Of a DNA stretch of 64,000 bases, positions 4,448-20,057 are shown in pieces. The position numbers were made by a program, and so were the translations under genes. A model generated the notes under the pieces. That model ran no database searches. It saw only the letters and a list, made by a program, of their open reading frames with translations, and was not told where the DNA came from. Numbering within the stretch: the stretch's first letter is position 1; each line of letters opens with the position of its first letter. Source of the stretch: an uncultured Acidobacteriota bacterium (lineage in GTDB: Bacteria > Acidobacteriota > UBA6911 > RPQK01 > JAPXNP01); contig CAVZRV010000031.1 in NCBI GenBank assembly GCA_963777605.1, positions 224,001-288,000 of the forward strand, read 5' to 3'.

Positions 4448-6205
4448 ATGTCGCGTTGGATTGGTTTCGTTTGCATTGTTGCTGTAGTGGCGGGTTGCGG
4501 CGGTGGGCGGGCGTGGGCGGCGGAGGGGCCGCAGAGCGTTCAGGAGCGGCTCGCCTGGTTCAAGCATGACAAGTTCGGAATGTTCATCCACTGGGGGCCG
4601 TATTCGGCCCTGGCGGGCGAGTGGAACGGCCGCCGCGTGGAGGTCGGCGACATCGCCGAATGGATCATGGAGCGTCTCCGGATTCCGGTCGCCGAGTATC
4701 GCGAGATGGCGCGGGACTTCAACCCGGTCGAGTTCGACGCTCAAAGCATCGTAAAACTCGCGAAAGAAACGGGAATGAAGTACCTGGTGTTCACCTCGAA
4801 GCACCACGACGGCTTCGCGATGTACCACTCCAGGGTCAGCGGATACAACATCGTGGACTGGACAAAGTTCGGCCGGGATCCTCTGCGGGAGCTGGCGGAT
4901 GAGTGCCACCGGCAGGGTATCCGGTTCGGGATCTACTATTCCCATCGCGAAGACTGGAACGAGCCCTTCGCCTACGGCAACACCTGGGACTTCGACTTCG
5001 ACCCGGAGCAGGACCTGGGAACGTTCGAAAAGAAATACCTCGAGGTGAAGGCCAAACCGCAACTGCGGGAGATTCTCAGCAACTACGGCGAGATTTCCCT
5101 GCTCTGGTTCGACCGCGGCATCTACACGCCGGAAGAGGCCAAGCAGTTCTCGGACATCGTCCACGAGCTCCAGCCGAAAGCGATCATCAACGGTCGGATC
5201 GGCAGCTACGGCCAGGAGCTGCTGGGCGACTACCAGAACACGGACGACAACGGGATGCCTCCGGGCGGCATCGAGGAGTACTGGGAGACGCCACAGACGC
5301 TCAACCACACCTGGGGCTACAGCAAGTTCGACACCGAGTGGAAAAGCCCCGCGGAAGTGGTGCGCCGGCTGGTCGACATCGTGAGCAAGGGCGGCAACTA
5401 CCTGCTGAATATCGGCCCGGACGGGATGGGCCGCGTGCCGCAGGCGTCTGTCGATGTCCTCACGCGGGTTGGGAGATGGATGCGGGCCAACGGGGAGAGC
5501 GTCTACGGGACTACGGCGAGCCCGTTCGGCCAGATCCCCTGGGGCACCTGCACGGTGAAGGGGGAGCGGCTCTACCTGCATGTATTTGACTGGCCCGCCG
5601 ACGGCAGGCTCACGCTCGAGGGGCTTCGCAGCGAGGTGCTTGGGGTCCGGCTGGCTCCGAAAGAGGGTGGAATGCTGCCGTTTGAGCAGAACGGGAGTAC
5701 GGTTGTCGTTACGGTTCCGGATGAGGCTCCGGATGAGCTGGACAGTGTGGTGGAGATGGAAATCCGCGGGGTTCCCGAGGTCGATCCAGCCATGGTGACT
5801 CAGGGCAACGATGGTGCTTTCCGTCTCGACTACATGACGGCCGTGACGAGCGGACGCGCAGTGAAACGGTTCAACCGCGTCGGGAAGTTTCACATTTCGA
5901 AGTGGAAGGGCCCGGAGGACAAGATCACTTGGCACGTAGAGATTACGAATCCAGGGGAGTTCGAAGTGAAGATCACTTACGCCGCCATGAAGGAGCGGGC
6001 CGGAGCTCCGTATGTAATCAAATCGGGTAACGCTGAAGTGATTGGCACGGTGGAGACTACGGGAGACTGGTACGAATACAAAACTTTTTCGTTGGGAACC
6101 CTGGAATTGCCGAAGGCAGGCGCCCAGACGATCGAGATCCGCCCGCGGCACGAACTCCCTGAAGACATGATGTATTTCAAGGAAATCGAGCTGCGGCCAA
6201 TGTAG
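4448..6205 (+). CDS. Alpha-L-fucosidase (GH29) with C-terminal carbohydrate-binding-like domain
   Basis: KFGMFIHWG, TSKHHDGF, LLWFD, WETPQTLNHTWGY, SKGGNYLLNIGP. Signal peptide MSRWIGFVCIVAVVAGCG. Confidence 0.93.
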   Translation: MSRWIGFVCIVAVVAGCGGGRAWAAEGPQSVQERLAWFKHDKFGMFIHWGPYSALAGEWNGRRVEVGDIAEWIMERLRIPVAEYREMARDFNPVEFDAQSIVKLAKETGMKYLVFTSKHHDGFAMYHSRVSGYNIVDWTKFGRDPLRELADECHRQGIRFGIYYSHREDWNEPFAYGNTWDFDFDPEQDLGTFEKKYLEVKAKPQLREILSNYGEISLLWFDRGIYTPEEAKQFSDIVHELQPKAIINGRIGSYGQELLGDYQNTDDNGMPPGGIEEYWETPQTLNHTWGYSKFDTEWKSPAEVVRRLVDIVSKGGNYLLNIGPDGMGRVPQASVDVLTRVGRWMRANGESVYGTTASPFGQIPWGTCTVKGERLYLHVFDWPADGRLTLEGLRSEVLGVRLAPKEGGMLPFEQNGSTVVVTVPDEAPDELDSVVEMEIRGVPEVDPAMVTQGNDGAFRLDYMTAVTSGRAVKRFNRVGKFHISKWKGPEDKITWHVEITNPGEFEVKITYAAMKERAGAPYVIKSGNAEVIGTVETTGDWYEYKTFSLGTLELPKAGAQTIEIRPRHELPEDMMYFKEIELRPM

Positions 6206-6240
6206 TCCTAACGGGCAATCCTTCGCAGATCGGCAGTGAG

Positions 6241-6522
6241 TTCAAGCGAGCCCCGCCCTTCCACGTTGCCGGGATCATTCTCAAAATGAAACCGGTGAAG
6301 CATTGCCAGATAAGCGCGCCAACCGCGCAGAGTCATTTTCAGCCCGGCGGCAACGCCCCGGGAATGGGGCCGAGGCGGCATTGCAGAACTGAAAGTGCGC
6401 TTCAGTCCCAGTGGCTGACTGTTTCGGGTCAAACCGAAAATTGAAGATCCTGGATTGACCCCTTTTCGCTTCCGCCGGGCAAGCTGCCCGGGCGACATAC
6501 CAGGCACGGCTGCCTAGATTAC
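6241..6522 (+). repeat. Dispersed ~280-bp intergenic repeat, type A, copy 1 (homologous to 60884-61166)
   Basis: Colinear shared blocks with 60884-61166: ggatcattc..tgaaac.ggt, gcgcgccaac.gcgcag.gtcattt.cagcccggcggcaacgccccgggaat, ctgaaagtgcg.ttcagtccc, atcctggattga, cttccgccgggcaagctgcccgg, tgcct.gattac. Confidence 0.9.
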
Positions 6523-6692: not shown

Positions 6693-8400
6693 GTGCAGTC
6701 CAAAGGCATCACTCTGGCGAGTCTTTCTCGCGTTCTGGGATTTGCAGCTCTCCTTGTCCTCCCTTCGGGAACGCTTCGGTCCGAGGGGACGGATTGGAAT
6801 CCTCAGCCTCGAGTTGAAGAAGGACTGGAACAGCGGGCCTCTTTATTGGGAATTCCGACGAGCCGGTTGGCTAAGGCCCGAGAAGCCCTGGTCCAGGCGA
6901 CCCGTGTCCAACTCCCGGACCTGCTCGAGAATGAAATGTACGATCCCCAAGCCCTGCTTCGGGAGTGGGAGCGGCTGCATCCTCAGGCGATCAACTCGGT
7001 GATCAGTCTCAGGGGCGCGCAGTTGACCGACACCCGGGACTCCGAAACGGTTGCCAAAGAGCTGGTCCCTCTTTTCGCGGAAATGGTCGAGACCGATCCG
7101 ATCCGGCTTCGTCAGCTGCTGACAGGCTCGATTCTTCAATCCCGTCGAACGAGACGCCCTGCTCAATCGGATCATCCAGCACAGGTTGAAGACGCGGGCG
7201 GTGGGAGGGTTCTGCAGACGCTGACCAGATCATCGATATGCTGGACGAAGTTCAACGGGAGTACCCCGAATTCCGGATGATCTTCGAGATGAGGGGGCTT
7301 CTGGTCAGACAACTCTGGCTCGAGAACCGGGTCGCCGAAGCCCGCCAAGTCGCTGGAAGACATCCCGCAAGATTTCAAGAGATGTGTCCCCATCACGCCC
7401 TGGTTAATCGAAGACTTCGGGCAGGGAATTCGCTGGATCGGGCGGTTGACTCCAGACGTCTTTTTGACGGGATTCGATCTATTAGACGAGGCGCTGAAGC
7501 ATTCAGTCGAAGCGCAGAATCAATATGAACTGCTTGCGAAAGACGGCATCGGCTCCGTCTCCGTCAGTTGGGCTGACCAGGTACGGCTCAAGACTGTGCC
7601 GGGGCTTCGCCCGATCAGAACCGGCATGGGAGCAGCTCCTGGCCGGCCGACCCGAGTTGAGAGAACTGGTCGAGCGGGTCAATCTCAGAGGCCGCCAGCT
7701 CGTACTACCTCCGGTTCCCTTTGCTTTGCCCGAGATCAGGAGTCCCAGGACGCAGGGGAACAGCTGGTCTCCGAGCTGCTGGATCGCTCCTCCCGGGCCG
7801 TTCGCGGCTTTCGCGGTTCGTCCTACATGATGCAATCCTCGATGACCGGAACGACGCCGGGTTTTGGACCGGGGCTGCCCAACGAATTCGGCCGCGCAAC
7901 GCCGGCGCCAAGCTGGCGTTCGACCCGGTCCCGCCTGGCACGAGAGTTGGGAACGCTGGAGAAATTCGATCTGCTCTTCCGCTACTCGAGTTCGAGAGCC
8001 CTCCCCGACAAGTGCCGGCGGGAGGCACTGAAAATCTCCTACAAACTCTTGGACGAAGCCACGGACCCGCTCCTGCGGGCTCGCCTTCTGACCGGGATCC
8101 TTCCGCTGGAGCGCCGGTTCGGGGAGAAAGACGTCGCGGCCGGCCATCTCGCGGAAGCCAGGAAACTGCTGGCCCAACTGCGAAAGTCTCCGACCGTCGA
8201 ATGCCGGCGGAGCCGGTCCGGACGGAGTCCGAATGGCGATCGATACGTTCGAGCGGGTGGTCGTCGCCGAATGGGCGTGGGTCGATTATCCGGGCGCAGC
8301 GTCATACGCGGCGAAGCTCAGCGGTTTCAACCGGTTCGCTGCCTTTCTGGAGATCGCGCGTCTGCTCTCGCTGTCGCCGTATTATCGCAACTGGCCGTTC
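6693..8400 (+). CDS. Hypothetical secreted helical protein, fragmented by several frameshifts
   Basis: RBS GGAGGAGG before GTG 6693 and a signal peptide (LSRVLGFAALLVLPSG). Successive overlapping ORFs 6693..7280, 7238..7528, 7525..7830 and 7446..8492 each carry protein-like helical segments. End coordinate is approximate. Confidence 0.45.
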
Positions 8401-13078: not shown

Positions 13079-15328
13079 TTGGCTCGCAGAATCAGGATCG
13101 CCATTGCCCGGTCTGCTAGTCATGAGCCATTTCGATCTGTATTCGGATTGCTTCGGACCCGGTTCTGGGTGCGGGAGTCAAGATCCTGGACCGGGAACAT
13201 CACAGCCGGGTCCTCGGAGAAACCCGCCACTACCGGATCTTCCTGCCTCCCGACTATGACTCGTCGCCGCAGAAGCGGTATCCGGTCATCTACTTCTTTC
13301 ACGGCTGGGGCGAGCGCTACAACCGGGGGCCAAACGAGGGAGCCGGCGCCTATGATTCCGGAAACGATTACGGCGGCGACAACCTCGCGGCCTTCGTCGA
13401 GAAGAACCCCGTGATCGTGGTGAAGTGGGACGGCTACAACCCGCGCACTCCGGGCGAAGACTACGTGCGTCCGTACAATATCGGACCGGTCGAGACTTAC
13501 CGACAGTTCCCGATTTACTTTCCCGAGTTCGTACAGTACATCGACGGCAATTACCGCACCATTGCGGACCGTGCCCACCGGGGGATTTCCGGTCTCTCGA
13601 TGGGCGGCTTCATGGCTTTCTGGGTAGGAGGGAAGTATCCGGACCTGGTGGGAAGCGTCTCGAATTTCATGGGGTCTCCCGAGTTCGTCGTCGGGCCGCG
13701 GGACTTCCCCACCGAGTATCTCCACACCGACATGTACTGCAACTACGAAGGCGTGCGCACCCGTCTGGTGATGGGATCGAGAGACTTCATCCGCTGGTAC
13801 CACGCCCGCATGAACCGGATCTGGGATGTCCTGCGCCCCAATTTCGAACACGAAATCTTCGACTGGGATCACGGCACTCCCGGCATGGACAAGCAGCTGC
13901 AGTTTCACCTGGACGCGTTCCAGGACCCCCTTCCCGAGCCGAGCCTGTGGCACCACATCGATGTCTATCCGACCTTCTCGGTCTGGGGATACTCGGTCTC
14001 GACCGATCGGCACCGCCCGGGATTCACGGTACTGGAGAATGTCACCCGGTCGGGTTTCCGCTGTTCGGTTCGGGAGTGGCTCCCCGACGGCCAGCGGATG
14101 CCCGACGTTCGCACTCAACATCGCGACCGCCCGGATCTACCGCCCATCCGTCGAGTACCAGATCGTCGACGTCAACCTCCACACCGGAACCATCCGCAGG
14201 GAGCGGCAACGTGCCGACCACGACGGACGGCTTCACATCCGGCTGGACGGCGATCTGCACGAGGTCGGCATCGTGGAGGAAGAGGGCCCGGTGCTCACCC
14301 TGGCCGATTTCAAGATCGCCGGTGCCGGCTGGGCCACTGCGGGAAGGCGGGTCAAGCTGGACCTTCACCTGCTCAACAAAGGGACGGTTCCGGCGAAACA
14401 GGTCACCCTCTCTTTGACGTCACCGAACGAGGGAGTCGCCATCTTCCCGGGAGAGACAGAGGTTGAACAACTGGTTCCGGGCCAGAGTCGGATCAGCCCG
14501 GATTTCAGTTTCGAAGTGAAAGACCGGATTCAGGCCGCTGCTGCGTTCGAGCTTCACTTGACAGACGCAACCGGGCGGAGCTGGCAGGTCCCGTTCGAGG
14601 TCATGCTCGTTCCTGAAGTCGAAGAACTCCGGGATGTGGAATTCGCTGACGGCCGGCGACTCAATGTCCAGGTTGGAGGCAACCAGGTCGAGGAGCGGAT
14701 GCTGGGTATCGGCAACGGCGACGGCCGGGTCAATCCCGGGGAATCGATCGTCGCGGTCGTCCGAGACCAGGGTGTCTTTCACCTCCTGTCCCTCCGCTCG
14801 GCCGACCGCTGCGTAAATCCGGCCGGGCTGAACCTTCGCTTTTCCGACTACTGGGGAAACTACGATCACGTCGGGGCCTCGGCCAAGTACTCGATGCCGA
14901 CCATTGCCGCAGACTGTCCAGCCGGTCACCGGATCGCCTTTTTCGCCGAATACCTCGTCCCGAACGCCCCGGAGCACACCCTGAATCAGGGCTTGGTAAC
15001 CGTTCCGGTCACCGGAGCCGACACCACTCCCCCGGCAGTCCGCTCGGCGGAACTGCTGCCGGGCAACCTGCTCGAAACCCAGCTCATCGAGGGCGGAGCG
15101 GTCAAATCGGCCCGCGCCACAATCACCCGAGTCTCCAATCCCACCTTCGCGGTCGAAGTCGAGTTGAATGACAAGGGCCTGAACGGCGACAAGGCGGCCG
15201 GAGACACCTGGTTCAGCGCGGTCGTACCGGAACTCCCCGAAGCAGACTATCGCGTTACGCTGGAGATGACCGACGATTCGGGAAACCGGACGATCGAGAT
15301 CCACGACCTGGTCAAGTCGGGGCCGTGA
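13079..15328 (+). CDS. Secreted alpha/beta-hydrolase (putative esterase) with C-terminal beta-sandwich domains, frameshifted near 13120 and 14110
   Basis: Frame upstream of 13411 reads ETRHYRIFLPPDYD..KRYPVIYFFHGWG. Nucleophile elbow GISGLSMGG. Continues in ORF 13826..15328 (GNGDGRVNPGE, ELNDKGLNGDKAAGDTWFSA). RBS AGGAGG precedes TTG at 13079 (start inferred). Confidence 0.7.
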
Positions 15329-16282: not shown

Positions 16283-17384
16283 TCACATTTTCCAGCTCAA
16301 CAGCTCCCGGCCGTAGTCGAGCAGCGGCGGTTCTCCGAACCGATCTACGTAATCCTGGTTCACCCAACAGGTGACCGAAGTGATATTCCGGATTCCGACC
16401 TTCTTGAGGAATTCCAGGTCTTCGTGTAGCACCTCGGGATTCCATGGAGCCCGAACCCATCTCTCCTCCTTCGTCTTCCAGCCACTGGCCCGGTAAGAAT
16501 CAAACCAGTACTCGAAAACCTGGGCGCCCTCTGAACCGAAGATCTCGAGATTGGCATAGAGCTGGTCCACCAGCCGGCCATGTTCGCCGTCCTTTGCACT
16601 GCGATCCGTATAGGGCCGATCGTGGGTTCGTGTGATCGGAGCCCACTCCAGGAAGACTCCCGGATCCGGCTTCACCTGGCGAGGCGGAGCCAGGGTGTGG
16701 AACGTATGCCGGATGGCTGACGGTTGCGGTTGGGTTCTCACGCCGCAACGCCTTGACGATCGAATTCTGGACCATCAGGGTCTGGTCACTGGGCGAGTAA
16801 ATGCGGCATTTCGGGCAAAGAACACAGATTCTTGGCGTCATCCGAAATGTAGAGGTATCGCCCCGTGGTCGACCGGAGCAACTGCGACCACTTCAGCCGC
16901 ATTTTCGGTGACAATCCCAAGGGCACGTATCGAACTGACGCAGAAGTTGGAATCCGGGGTCCGCTCCGTCCCGGTTCATCCGGAACATTGACGGGTCCTT
17001 CGTGAAAAGGTCCCGGGGCAGAAGCGTGGAATAGGAGTGGAGCGAGTGTTCCACGTCCAGGCCGAACCGGGCACAATCCGCCTGAAAAACCTTGCCCTTC
17101 TCAGTGCCGAGAAAAGCCAGAATCTCCGCCGGGTCGTGATGCGTAGCAATCGTGTTCAACCCGGCGGCATGTGCCTTCGCCGGCCAGTCCCATCTGGCTA
17201 AATCCGTCGCCCAAACGGTCACTCCTCGCCGTTCGAAGTAGGGTGAAGTGCCGTTGTCTTGGGGACTCCCCCTGACCGATCGAGGCAACCCGAATGCTGC
17301 CAAGCCGGTGACCGCCAGGGTCCAGCCACCCAGAAACGAACGCCGGGAAGTAAGCCGCCGGAAATCTTGCCCGCCAAGGTCCAT
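16283..17384 (-). CDS. Tat-exported DUF4838-like protein, several frameshifts
   Basis: TSRRSFLGG Tat motif. WPAKAHAAGLNTIATH, VEHSLHS..LLPRDLF..PSMFRMN, CxCxxC (CSLPEMP/LCPKC across frames), FLEWAPITR, AQVFEYWFDS, GIRNITS spread over ORFs 16893..17417, 16500..16841 and 16283..16741. Confidence 0.65.
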
Positions 17385-17690
17385 CGCTCGAACCTCCCTT
17401 TCATCAGATCGTAACAACGCCGAGGCCCAGGAACAATGGTCAGATCAACCCAGGAGTGAATACGGCCACGAGAGAACTGAACATGGCGATCAGTTGGTGT
17501 TCAGAACCAAAACGAAGCGGTCAACACTCCCTTTGGCCAATGCCCAGCATCGCGGACTCCTTCGCGTGATCGGCAGGTGGGGGGCATCGCCGGCTCAGGG
17601 GTCTACGTTCCCACCACCGGCCCTGCCCCTTCTAAGGGGAAGTCCGCGTCCTGCACTGCGCAAGAGTCTGCTCCGAATTGTTGACCGCCG

Positions 17691-17855
17691 TCATCCTCTA
17701 GTATTCGGCGGTGGAGGCGGAGGCGGAGGACTCGGACAGCAGTCTTCCGTTTGAACCGTCGTATCTTGAGACTCCACTCCTGAGCCGGTTTGCGTATCCG
17801 TCGGAGCGACAGCCGACAATGCCATTAAGGTCACAACCAAAATCCACTCAACCAT
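17691..17855 (-). CDS. Small secreted Cys-Cys/poly-Pro peptide precursor (54 aa; absent from the supplied ORF track)
   Basis: Manual translation: MVEWILVVTLMALSAVAPTDTQTGSGVESQDTTVQTEDCCPSPPPPPPPPNTRG*. RBS-like AAAGGGAG about 6 nt upstream. Hydrophobic N-terminus ending in AVA. Confidence 0.72.
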   Translation of the reverse strand: MVEWILVVTLMALSAVAPTDTQTGSGVESQDTTVQTEDCCPSPPPPPPPPNTRG

Positions 17856-17924
17856 TTCTTACTCCCTTTCTTGTCCATCGGACCCACGCAGCCTAGACCC
17901 GGCCCACGGTTGGGACCAAAAATT

Positions 17925-17972
17925 TTCAGCAGGACCGAACACTTTGGCGTTCGAGTGTTCGGAAATTCCGAA
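17925..17972. promoter_or_regulatory. Paired palindromic operator TTCGG-N5-CCGAA (sites 17925-17939 and 17958-17972)
   Basis: TTCAG-caggA-CCGAA (one mismatch) and TTCGG-aaatt-CCGAA, 33 bp apart, in the divergent peptide/7TM intergenic region. Same architecture at 19903-19950. Confidence 0.7.
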
Positions 17973-18057
17973 AAGTGGTGACGAAAACGGAGTCCTTGAT
18001 CTAAGCTTGAGATCGCGAATAGACTTCAGGGGATGTCGCCGTCTGAAATCCCGACGT

Positions 18058-18771
18058 ATGTCAACACGGCTACTATTGGTGGTACTGGTCGTCCGGATCG
18101 TGCGCAAGAGATTGGCTGCCCGCTACCGGGTGTTTGTGGGTTATCTGGTGTTCGAGACGGTTTCAGTCCTGATCTCGGATTGGATCATCTTGGACTTCGG
18201 ATTGGAGTCGTCAGTGTACCGGGTTCACTACTACGCATACTCGACCCTGACCCCAGCATTGCAGATCTGGGTGCTCATCGACCTGGCCCGCCGGAACTTC
18301 AGGCTCGGCAGTGAGGCGCCCCACGCCACCAGTGTGCTCGCCGTGCTCTCGCTCCTGGTGGGGCTTCCGGTGTTCGTTTTCGTAGGGTTCTTACCAGTCT
18401 ACGGCTATGACCGGGTTCAGGCGATCAGCCTGGTTTTTCAAATGGTTCTGACCCTGCTGATCTACCTCTACCTGCTGGAACGACGGGACATCGACCCGGG
18501 AAAGAACCTCAAGGCTATTCTGGGCGGGATGACCCTGATGGTCACCTGCCAGTCGTTGAATTTCCTGAGCTATTTCCAGGACCGAATCGGATTTGAGTTT
18601 TTCCAGTTCGGGGTTCCGGCTATCTACGGCGTGGCCCTGCTGATCTTCACAGCCGGCCTTTGGAACTACGCACCGGCAAGCGCGTCGGCGGAACAGCGCA
18701 CGCTGAACCTGGGATTGCAGCGGAGCGTCCGTTTGATGCTGCACCTTCTCTACGAGAGGCCATCCAGCTAA
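18058..18771 (+). CDS. Predicted 7-transmembrane membrane protein (candidate peptide receptor)
   Basis: Seven hydrophobic segments (LLLVVLVVRIV; VFVGYLVFETVSVLI; YYAYSTLTPALQIWVLI; VLAVLSLLVGLPVFVFVGFL; AISLVFQMVLTLLIYLYLL; AILGGMTLMVTCQSLNFLSYF; FGVPAIYGVALLIFTAGLW). True start may be ATG 18033 with a frameshift. Confidence 0.75.
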   Translation: MSTRLLLVVLVVRIVRKRLAARYRVFVGYLVFETVSVLISDWIILDFGLESSVYRVHYYAYSTLTPALQIWVLIDLARRNFRLGSEAPHATSVLAVLSLLVGLPVFVFVGFLPVYGYDRVQAISLVFQMVLTLLIYLYLLERRDIDPGKNLKAILGGMTLMVTCQSLNFLSYFQDRIGFEFFQFGVPAIYGVALLIFTAGLWNYAPASASAEQRTLNLGLQRSVRLMLHLLYERPSS

Positions 18772-19200
18772 TGAGATTCGATGACTACATTGAGATCTAC
18801 TTCCTGGGACTGGTCGTCTGCGTGGCCATCGTTGCGGCATACTACCACCTGGCCCGGATCGAGGTCCGGGAATCGGATCGCGAGAAGCTCAGCGAGGCCA
18901 ACCTCAACCTGGAAGTGATCCTGATCATGCTGGAAGCGCCCGACACGCAGTACCTGATGTCAAGATCGGGCAAAGGAAAGTTCCTCTTCACGGAGTATTC
19001 CCGCTCGCTCAGGGCAGACGTCCTGGGGCTCATCCGGACACGGGAATTGGGTCTGAAGTCCTACGGGCTGATTGCCGCCTTTTACGTTGCCTACTGGGTC
19101 ATGTCCTGGAAGAGCAAGCTCTCGGCCAGCCTCAACGACATTCGCGGTGCTCTCCGCGCTGGAACTCAGGCTGGTCCGCGCTCTAGTCGTTCTGAGTCCT
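18771..19200 (+). CDS. Small membrane protein translationally coupled to the 7TM gene (about 140 aa; 3' end probably frameshifted)
   Basis: TAATG stop/start overlap at 18769-18773. MRFDDYIEIYFLGLVVCVAIVAAYY N-terminal TM and a second hydrophobic segment YGLIAAFYVAYWVM. The ORF-track extension to 19604 overlaps the convergent regulator and is probably an indel artefact. Confidence 0.65.
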
Positions 19201-19762
19201 CAGCAGAACAGCGCACACCAGTTGACGAGGTAGTGCTGAACCAGCTTCTCCACGAAACTCGGGCACCCTTCCGCCTTGAGGAAGAAATGGTAGGTGGTGT
19301 TGAGGAAATCCTGGTGCCACCACATCCCCTGGTTGGGCGGGTCTCCGTTTTCCAGGCGGACGAGGCATCGATCGAGCAGGAAGTCGCTCAGGTTCTGATA
19401 CATCACGATCCGGCACGATCGGCCCCGGGCCTCGAACAACGCGCCTCCTTCAGCCTGGGACAGGCGAATGACCTCTCCCAGCCGAAACTCCTGGAGCCGC
19501 CTCAAGTAGAGGAGTTCGTTGTCCTCGGCGCGGGTACCCGACACCTCCAACGGCCAAACCGCCGTGATGTCGATCTCGAGCGCTGCCAGCACCCTGAACA
19601 GTGACTCCAGGTTCAAACGGTATGCACGGCTTCCATTGACCCATAAGAACTCGTATGAATGCCGGCTCGCTCCGCAATTTCTCTCACACCGACGTTCTTG
19701 GAGAGCCGCAGTCGTCGAAGCCGCTGTCTGACAAAATCGTTCACCGATAGCCCGGAAAGCAT
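19200..19762 (-). CDS. XRE/Cro-CI family HTH transcriptional regulator with a ~120-aa C-terminal domain, frameshift near 19620
   Basis: FVRQRLRRLRLSKNVGVREIAERAGIHTSSYGSMEA joined to LNLESLFRVLAALEIDITAVWP gives a complete HTH_3-type domain. RBS GGGGGA upstream. Confidence 0.78.
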
Positions 19763-19902
19763 GATTTCCCCCCTTGTGACACTGTGCGGAGAAACGTTAT
19801 CGGCGGCTTCGCTCGCTGTCAATACCCAGCAACGACACTTCGCCGATAATCCGGGTGACCATCCTCGATGGACCTCGGAAATGCTTCAAATTCGCTCGCC
19901 TG

Positions 19903-19950
19903 TTCGGACATTCCGAACACTGTAGGCCCGGCGTGTTCGGGTATGCCGAA
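19903..19950. promoter_or_regulatory. Paired palindromic operator TTCGG-N5-CCGAA (sites 19903-19917 and 19936-19950)
   Basis: TTCGG-acatt-CCGAA and TTCGG-gtatg-CCGAA, 33 bp apart, between the divergent XRE gene and hybrid kinase gene. Confidence 0.72.
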
Positions 19951-20057
19951 TTGTCATCCGGTTAAAGGCCATCCTCGGTTAGAGTTCCTTTGAGGCGAAT
20001 GGTTTTCGAAAACATGGACGTTCAATTCGGCGAATTGCTGCTCATGGAGGAAAGCGC

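Follow-up and report, generated by a model that had tools for sequence, protein, structure and literature searches.

According to the accessible portions of two reports (10.1101/2025.02.05.636593; PMC9973294), CutF of Rhodobacter capsulatus and CruR of Bordetella pertussis (DUF2946) are short proteins exported through Sec that combine a Cys/His metal site with a Pro repeat at the C-terminus, and stalling during co-translational export controls a downstream gene in cis. In the same portions, the mature CutF chain of 90 aa bears CxxxC at residues 41-45 and PPP at its C-terminus, and CutF-like proteins are delimited by a length below 150 aa, a Sec-type signal, a Cys site and PP no more than 15 residues from the C-terminus. 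Bufferins, as the accessible part of their description has it, carry a Sec signal on a small Cys-containing precursor (PMC11626156). Arrest peptides of the SecM, MifM, VemP and RAPP types are small ORFs that pair an N-terminal export or insertion signal with a C-terminal hard-to-translate motif; all of these lie upstream of Sec/YidC pathway genes and act in cis. In RRNPP systems (Rgg/SHP, PlcR/PapR, ComR/ComS, PrgX), a secreted-peptide gene lies beside an XRE-HTH regulator gene, often divergent from it. The locus described here shares one or more of these traits with each of the systems.

Annotation routinely misses small secreted proteins, and the Acidobacteria, which are abundant in soil, have almost no characterised signalling peptides. 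We analysed a peptide ORF from an acidobacterial assembly; the window referred to throughout is the whole stretch of DNA that was analysed, 64,000 nt long. An ORF below the calling threshold led in this case to a defined family with a fixed partner set and a recognisable operator: public protein sets held 25 homologues at E <= 0.01, all of them unnamed or called 'hypothetical protein' and two with Acidobacteria source names. We regard it as an unannotated small-protein family within an uncharacterised four-gene regulatory cassette, whose biochemical role we infer. The gene is real, and the family, the cassette and the operators are conserved. A literature search, with subscription journals and supplements (including the CutF-like lists of PMC9973294) outside its scope, returned no description of the peptide family or the cassette.

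As read from the sequence, the peptide gene belongs to a conserved and compact four-gene cassette of acidobacteria; its other members are an XRE-HTH regulator, a 140-aa two-TM protein and a 246-aa 7TM protein, with the peptide transcribed divergently. Relative to the peptide, the regulator gene (192-213 aa) lies on the same strand and the two-TM and 7TM genes on the opposite strand, where their start and stop overlap; the conserved intergenic region between peptide and 7TM genes is about 175 nt long. The window contains the following features.

17691..17855, minus strand: peptide gene, 54 codons plus stop with an ATG start, based on the ORF listing, purifying selection and orthologues
17862..17869, minus strand: Shine-Dalgarno sequence AAAGGGAG, 6 nt upstream of the ATG at 17855-17853
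17924..17973, no strand: palindrome pair of GTTCGG-N5-CCGAAC type (17924-17940 and 17957-17973), with starts 33 nt apart, between the peptide and 7TM genes
18033..18771, plus strand: 7TM gene, 246 aa in intact paralogs
18771..19200, plus strand: 140-aa two-TM gene, start overlapping the 7TM stop
19200..19822, minus strand: XRE-HTH regulator gene, 192-213 aa in intact paralogs
19902..19951, no strand: second palindrome pair (19902-19918, exact GTTCGG-N5-CCGAAC, and 19935-19951), 33 nt apart, upstream of the regulator

The 54-aa translation of 17691..17855 (minus strand) in the ORF listing reads:

MVEWILVVTLMALSAVAPTDTQTGSGVESQDTTVQTEDCCPSPPPPPPPPNTRG

A signal-peptide-like N-terminus beginning MVE is followed by an acidic Thr/Gln/Asp/Glu linker, CC at residues 39-40, a P8 tract and an NTRG tail. 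The P8 tract is encoded by three CCT, four CCG and one CCA codons. The features on which the original prediction was built (the ORF, a ribosome-binding site, a hydrophobic N-terminus, the Cys pair and eight prolines with mixed codons) are all present in the sequence. So is the out-of-frame upstream ATG that it had placed at 17878: this ATG (17878-17876) lies 23 nt before the peptide start and opens a 15-codon ORF only. The further suggestion that an assembly indel hides a longer N-terminus (MDKKGSKKWLSG...) was rejected, because none of the four gene copies in the assembly has the upstream ATG in frame (at 23, 23, 22 and 23 nt) and the Shine-Dalgarno sequence and start are conserved: relatives in other genera begin at the same Met-plus-hydrophobic position directly behind a GGAGG-type Shine-Dalgarno sequence. 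A scan of 17300-18150 against Rfam gave no matches at E <= 1, and a sigma-70 promoter scan gave no sites. One weak terminator-like site was found at 17530-17514, not above shuffled sequences.

A six-frame search of the window's assembly found four copies of the peptide (A-D, A being the window copy), with 81-84% amino acid identity to the window peptide and all intact at 54-55 codons. Over 41 gap-free codons, dN/dS was 0.08 for A against B, C or D, 0.23 for B against C and 0.18 for B against D; copies C and D differed by two substitutions only, both synonymous. The 36 variable columns among the four copies were distributed 6/7/23 over the three codon positions, that is, 23/36 at position 3. 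The low dN/dS values and this third-position excess bear out the proposal, made earlier from the mixed proline codons, that selection acts at the protein level. A strict pattern (Shine-Dalgarno sequence, hydrophobic N-terminus and CC...PPP in 30-110 aa) had four matches in the 6.73-Mb assembly, and the ORF is beyond chance because those matches were the four copies and nothing else. Among family members, GGAG or GAGG lay no more than 16 nt upstream of the same start in 19/21. With a coding signature in the copies, the Shine-Dalgarno sequence and start retained and orthologues in other genera, the ORF is, on these signatures, a real, conserved small-protein gene, as had been predicted.

Copies A, C and D are clear paralogous loci. 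The status of copy B as a paralog is doubtful, because its contig C44 (30,348 nt) shadows the window's contig and the bin contamination estimate is 5.68%: C44 is collinear with C31:240,280-270,646, which is window 16,280-46,646, with 28,954 of 30,348 bases matched at 92-98% identity. Judging from this alignment, copy B probably either comes from a co-binned related strain, as the counterpart of copy A, or belongs to a large duplication. A further contig, C45, also matched C44 (77-95%).

The repeated unit common to the copies is about 2.1 kb long and ends inside the Pro tract. The tails differ, NTRG in A and B and CRDGNC in C and D, and the switch falls inside the Pro tract. The peptide ORF of copy B (L011:8775-8939) has A-like flanks (91% over 9.6 kb), but its codons 1-41 are far closer to C and D (dS 0.22-0.24) than to A (dS 1.78). 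This mosaic suggests gene conversion or recombination among the cassette copies.

Family anatomy was measured on 25 members, which were 53-79 aa long. The uncharged N-terminal stretch (h-region) had a median of 14 residues (range 8-21), usually with small residues after it. By this measure it is of signal-peptide length and not of anchor length, in keeping with the signal-like hydrophobic N-terminus originally predicted. Only 11/25 members had K or R within the first six residues, which is atypical for Sec signal peptides, as is the MVE start of the window peptide. The linker was variable and mostly acidic, with a mean column identity of 29% between genera, and the net charge of the exported part ranged from -10 to +2.

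The C-terminal Cys/Pro tail was the conserved part of the family. CC was present in 23/25 members, at positions 32-54, an apparent invariance that is partly circular, as some of these peptides had been recognised by the CC pattern in the first place. In all 23 members with CC, the first Pro followed within 0-4 residues, and the last Pro lay 1-10 residues from the C-terminus in 25/25. Tails were short and hydrophilic, like NTRG in the window, or carried further Cys, as in copies C and D; many members had extra Cys in or after the Pro tract (2-5 Cys in all), and two cases had His. Two orthologues from one genus (L032 and L033, in genomes G013 and G009) kept the signal-like N-terminus and the Pro tract with no Cys at all. 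The Cys pair is therefore not indispensable. It is plausible that the mature C-terminal peptide is the signal, as first proposed. An atlas search with the peptide gave no usable match.

The 7TM protein was found in 29/76 genomes of the order, the window genome included. In a phylum-wide sample, 18/401 genomes matched it, seven of them outside the order and weakly. Among the 30 returned loci, tblastn detected the 7TM protein and the regulator in 26 each and the 140-aa protein in 27. A lack of conservation in syntenic relatives had been named among the results that would refute the ORF, and conservation was observed: a small ORF preceded by a Shine-Dalgarno sequence, with a hydrophobic N-terminus and a Pro-rich tail, lay divergent to the 7TM gene in 23/30 loci, with CC in 21. 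Sixteen of these 23 were recognised by the CC...PPP pattern, three by eye and four by a filter for a Shine-Dalgarno sequence and hydrophobic N-terminus without any Cys/Pro requirement. No peptide was found in 7/30 loci: two were cut by contig ends (145 nt or less available), two were weak loci without the cassette, and three (L023, L024 and L036) had sufficient sequence with no peptide seen.

A second gene order was also observed. In 4/16 remote or divergent 7TM loci (L054, L055, L062 and L068, in genomes G289, G298 and G035), a small Cys/Pro signal-peptide ORF with CxxC- or single-Cys-type motifs, not CC, preceded the 7TM gene by 83-159 nt in the same orientation. The small-ORF filter has a background of 33 ORFs in 6.73 Mb, or 0.017 per 3.5 kb, and at this low background the linkage of peptide and 7TM protein holds in two gene orders. 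The same-strand arrangement would permit cis control.

Scans of the cassette proteins against Pfam, NCBIfam, PADLOC and PHROGs gave HTH matches only, and the 7TM protein matched no family in the four collections. Its predicted model (pLDDT 88, pTM 0.79) contained seven TM helices and a C-terminal helix in the position of helix 8. Foldseek returned nothing at E <= 0.001, the best matches being GPCR and rhodopsin chains at E about 0.09. With an exhaustive aligner, the 7TM domain of LYCHOS/GPR155 came first (Z 13.1, rmsd 3.6, 186 residues), followed by GPCRs at Z 10-11.6; by the aligner's own note these matches are near the helical-bundle background, and we therefore claim topology only, which from the model would be GPCR-like, N-out/C-in. 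When the alignment was placed on the model helices, the conserved polar residues S59, Y62, Q173 and N176 mapped to what would be the outer ends of TM3 and TM6 in the inferred topology. No Cys, His, Asp or Glu occurred among the invariant columns.

Atlas neighbours of the 7TM protein were hypothetical acidobacterial proteins. An exhaustive profile search found 565 representatives at E <= 0.001 and 41 at <= 1e-30; among the 150 matches listed, all relatives were 280 aa or shorter, and none of the 37 of these that were scanned reached a Pfam cut-off.

The regulator has an HTH_3/HTH_31 domain and is thus of the XRE/Cro-C1 HTH type: an intact paralog scored 27.6 bits with PF13560 (cut-off 27) and 25.2 bits with PF01381 (cut-off 23). 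Its model (pLDDT 85) showed an HTH, a long helix and a four-stranded alpha/beta domain of about 110 aa. The HTH part matched XRE structures at Z 10-11.4, with PlcR, PrgX and ComR among the fold matches through this domain, and the C-terminal domain matched MglB/Roadblock (Z 10.1, rmsd 2.9, 101 residues) and GAF (Z 9.4). A Roadblock/MglB-like domain thus occurs in the regulator alongside LYCHOS/GPR155 as the top structural match of the 7TM protein. Eukaryotic Roadblock-domain proteins and the LYCHOS/GPR155 receptor act in one pathway; at these model Z-scores the pairing is probably a coincidence.

Operator-like palindromes accompany the cassette. A permissive scan (two mismatches or fewer) gave 724 matches against about 394 expected, was uninformative and was replaced by a stricter one. 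The exact GTTCGG-N5-CCGAAC occurred eight times in the assembly, four of them upstream of the four regulator genes, and palindrome pairs 31-35 nt apart occurred ten times, six of them in cassettes (in the peptide/7TM intergenic region and upstream of the regulator). In other genomes, TTCGG-N5-CCGAA with at most one mismatch was present in the peptide/7TM intergenic region of 12/18 loci, where 0.006 would be expected per 180 nt. One genus had a second palindrome pair, 32 nt apart, between the 7TM and 140-aa genes. Because of where the palindromes lie, the XRE regulator is a candidate to bind them.

A solo intact regulator paralog (191 aa, 5947-6522, plus strand) was found on contig C13 (region C13:5745-7900), with no 7TM or peptide gene present. 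One operator pair there (5745/5778) lies upstream of the solo regulator and another (7005/7038) inside a 317-aa ORF (6947-7900, plus strand), where an internal signal-peptide-like Met (MKRGLVLT...) follows about 110 nt downstream of the pair. Other targets may also be under the control of this regulator family.

The comparison with described systems sets this family apart from each of them. CutF/CruR is the closest described kind, and membership in it nonetheless fails. Like CutF and CruR as presented in the accessible portions of their reports, the peptides are small, with a signal-peptide-like N-terminus, a Cys site and a C-terminal Pro repeat, and at 53-79 aa with the last Pro within 10 residues of the end in 25/25 they fall within the published size and PP limits (10.1101/2025.02.05.636593; PMC9973294). 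An hmmscan of 21 peptides at E <= 10 gave no match to DUF2946 (0/21). The family has CC and not CxxxC, placed 0-4 residues from the prolines and not about 40 upstream as those portions give for CutF. Instead of metal-homeostasis genes, its conserved partners comprise a divergent 7TM gene together with genes for a two-TM protein and an XRE regulator. No same-strand downstream target within 1000 nt was conserved, and the next gene was convergent in 5/17 loci; a same-strand downstream gene was seen in individual copies only, for example at 273 nt in copy A.

The remaining systems share fewer traits. The peptide resembles SecM, MifM, VemP and RAPP-type arrest peptides in being a small ORF with a putative N-terminal export signal and a C-terminal hard-to-translate motif; a RAPP-type motif is absent from it, and the family has no Sec/YidC pathway gene downstream. 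The cassette resembles RRNPP systems in having a putative secreted-peptide gene beside an XRE-HTH regulator. Unlike those systems, its regulator has a Roadblock/GAF-like domain in the model and no TPR peptide-binding domain, two membrane proteins belong to the conserved set, and the host is a diderm acidobacterium. RRNPP membership, which is defined by HTH plus TPR, was rejected; the XRE HTH is the only part in common. The MNIO (DUF692) maturase and partner enzyme of bufferins are missing from the cassette: the products of the three neighbouring genes, scanned against Pfam and NCBIfam, matched HTH families only.

The only Pfam signal in the peptide was PRIMA1 (E 0.0086, 16.3 bits against a cut-off of 38.6), a low-complexity match found in 4/21 members. 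Like the PRAD of ColQ and PRiMA, the peptide has an adjacent Cys pair followed by a polyproline run in what would be an extracytoplasmic segment. In eukaryotes, PRAD organises cholinesterase tetramers. Inspection of the cassette proteins by eye showed no Trp-rich partner helix. PRIMA1/PRAD membership was rejected at a score far below the gathering cut-off, and the likeness is one of CC and polyproline only.

We tentatively favour, at somewhat below an even chance, a Sec-exported peptide that would work in trans together with the 7TM protein as part of an envelope signalling module under XRE control. The short signal peptide would probably be removed to leave about 37 aa of acidic peptide, in which a C-terminal CC leading directly into the polyproline tract would be the one conserved feature. 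The peptide and 7TM genes diverge from the operator-bearing intergenic region, and in this genome operators of the same type precede the regulator gene; the regulator would control both promoters. The exported peptide could then act at the outer face of the inner membrane as a ligand or tethered partner of the 7TM and two-TM proteins, and this membrane complex might feed back on the regulator to close an envelope or cell-cell signalling loop. We infer export, signal-peptide cleavage, the peptide-7TM interaction and regulator-operator binding from the data presented above. A predicted complex of the 7TM protein with the mature peptide (residues 18-55), run without controls, gave ipSAE values of 0.09 and 0.00 against a mark of 0.32 and carries no weight for or against the interaction. 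Together, the peptide, 7TM protein, two-TM protein, XRE-Roadblock regulator and operator would make a complete circuit that is open to direct test.

An extension of this scheme, which we consider unlikely though worth stating, is an undescribed peptide-receptor system in which a Sec-exported CC/polyproline ligand, a 7TM receptor of GPCR topology, a two-TM adaptor and an autoregulating XRE-Roadblock factor would form an autocrine or quorum-type circuit in Acidobacteria. In a sub-variant, the Pro tract would double as a translational pause, letting a mini-protein of fewer than 60 aa be targeted co-translationally. If true, such a peptide-receptor circuit would draw on components with no relation to those of the Agr, RRNPP or two-component peptide systems.

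Next in likelihood, and already quite doubtful, is a secreted bacteriocin-like peptide, for which the 7TM and two-TM proteins would provide self-immunity and the XRE protein would be the repressor. The patchy, accessory distribution described above (29/76 genomes in the order and seven weak matches outside it among 401 sampled in the phylum) would suit such a system, as would the several copies per genome with a degraded copy and a solo regulator, the strong variation of the linker between genera, and the apparent co-regulation of the peptide with membrane proteins from a shared operator region, as the palindromes suggest. Most bacteriocins, however, are cationic or amphipathic peptides, and the exported part here is acidic to neutral and Pro-rich. 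The cassette also includes no dedicated exporter, protease or modification enzyme in the Pfam, NCBIfam, PADLOC and PHROGs scans, and the near-identical peptides from one genome's copies fit poorly with diversifying toxin/immunity pairs.

It is improbable that the product is a periplasmic peptide whose thiols bind soft metals (Cu, Hg, Cd) or serve as a redox reporter, with the membrane proteins as transporter or sensor and the regulator as output. The near-invariant Cys pair and the further Cys of many members favour this, and there are precedents: in the accessible portions of the respective reports, Cys-rich Sec-exported small proteins serve copper sensing or buffering (CutF, 10.1101/2025.02.05.636593; bufferins, PMC11626156) and a vicinal Cys pair acts in mercury transport proteins (PMC5715351). 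No metal-homeostasis genes were present in the cassette or consistently beside it, however, and the enzyme on which the bufferin route depends is absent from the cassette. The two Cys-free orthologues count against this account as well, as does the 7TM protein, whose invariant columns offer none of the four residue types Cys, His, Asp and Glu.

Rather improbable, too, is an arrest peptide of the CutF/CruR or SecM/MifM kind, in which the ribosome would pause on the Pro tract during export engagement and a pause tuned by metal or force would control a neighbouring gene in cis. In this family about 25-35 residues separate the end of the h-region from the Pro tract, which falls in the range over which nascent chains experience pulling forces. 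Copies A and B also have a same-strand gene with a twin-arginine-like motif (identified by eye) 273 nt downstream, and the four remote loci place the peptide ORF upstream of the 7TM gene on its own strand. Against this, the Cys pair adjoins the prolines in every member that has it and would sit inside the ribosome tunnel at the pause, so it cannot be periplasmic at that time. The main gene order places the conserved partners on the opposite strand, which makes cis control through the mRNA impossible; downstream genes vary between genomes, and the 2.1-kb repeat unit ends inside the Pro tract. A leader peptide for a conserved downstream gene was rejected, as downstream genes are not conserved.

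The family nonetheless matches the three-part architecture that the accessible portions of the reports use to define CutF-like proteins (PMC9973294; 10.1101/2025.02.05.636593). It thereby marks a boundary for that class: the same signal, Cys and polyproline architecture is combined here with a spacing and a gene neighbourhood that rule out the CutF mechanism, and arrest-peptide sensors should therefore not be annotated from architecture alone.

That the ORF is spurious, or an artefact of assembly within GC-rich intergenic DNA, is barely credible: it is short, several genes of the window are split and the cassette neighbours of the window copy bear indels, but the dN/dS and codon-position pattern, the conserved Shine-Dalgarno sequence and start, the orthologues across many genera and the intact peptide ORF in 4/4 copies all stand against it.

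The apparent indels in the window's cassette were read from the assembly sequence; they are four 1-nt changes in the regulator, 7TM and 140-aa genes. A search for sequencing runs listed two holders, with shares of 0.06 and 0.05, and none for RNA. The regulator is split by a 1-nt deletion into ORFs of 69 aa (19613-19822) and 138 aa (19200-19616). In the 7TM gene, a 1-nt insertion places the first 13 or so codons (from 18033) in another frame than the rest, and translation could yet begin at an in-frame ATG (18058) or at a TTG (17944). The two-TM gene loses its frame after about residue 125 (near 19146), and its ORF runs on to 19604. Given these 1-nt indels in three genes, the window copy of the cassette may be decaying. 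A generally indel-rich assembly, as described earlier, is not evident over this unit, because copies C and D are intact and clean over the same 2.1 kb.

At C30:406950-408045 lies a fifth, degraded cassette: it retains one operator pair, a regulator gene broken by a frameshift (119 + 114 aa) and a shortened 140-aa gene, and neither 7TM nor peptide was detected in it. Elsewhere in the window, a 174-aa ORF with a twin-arginine-like motif is followed by a 152-aa ORF (16283-17417, minus strand); the two had no family in a Pfam scan and look like one frameshifted gene. A pair of ORFs of 351 aa and 500 aa at 13411-15328 (plus strand) likewise looks like one gene split by a frameshift.
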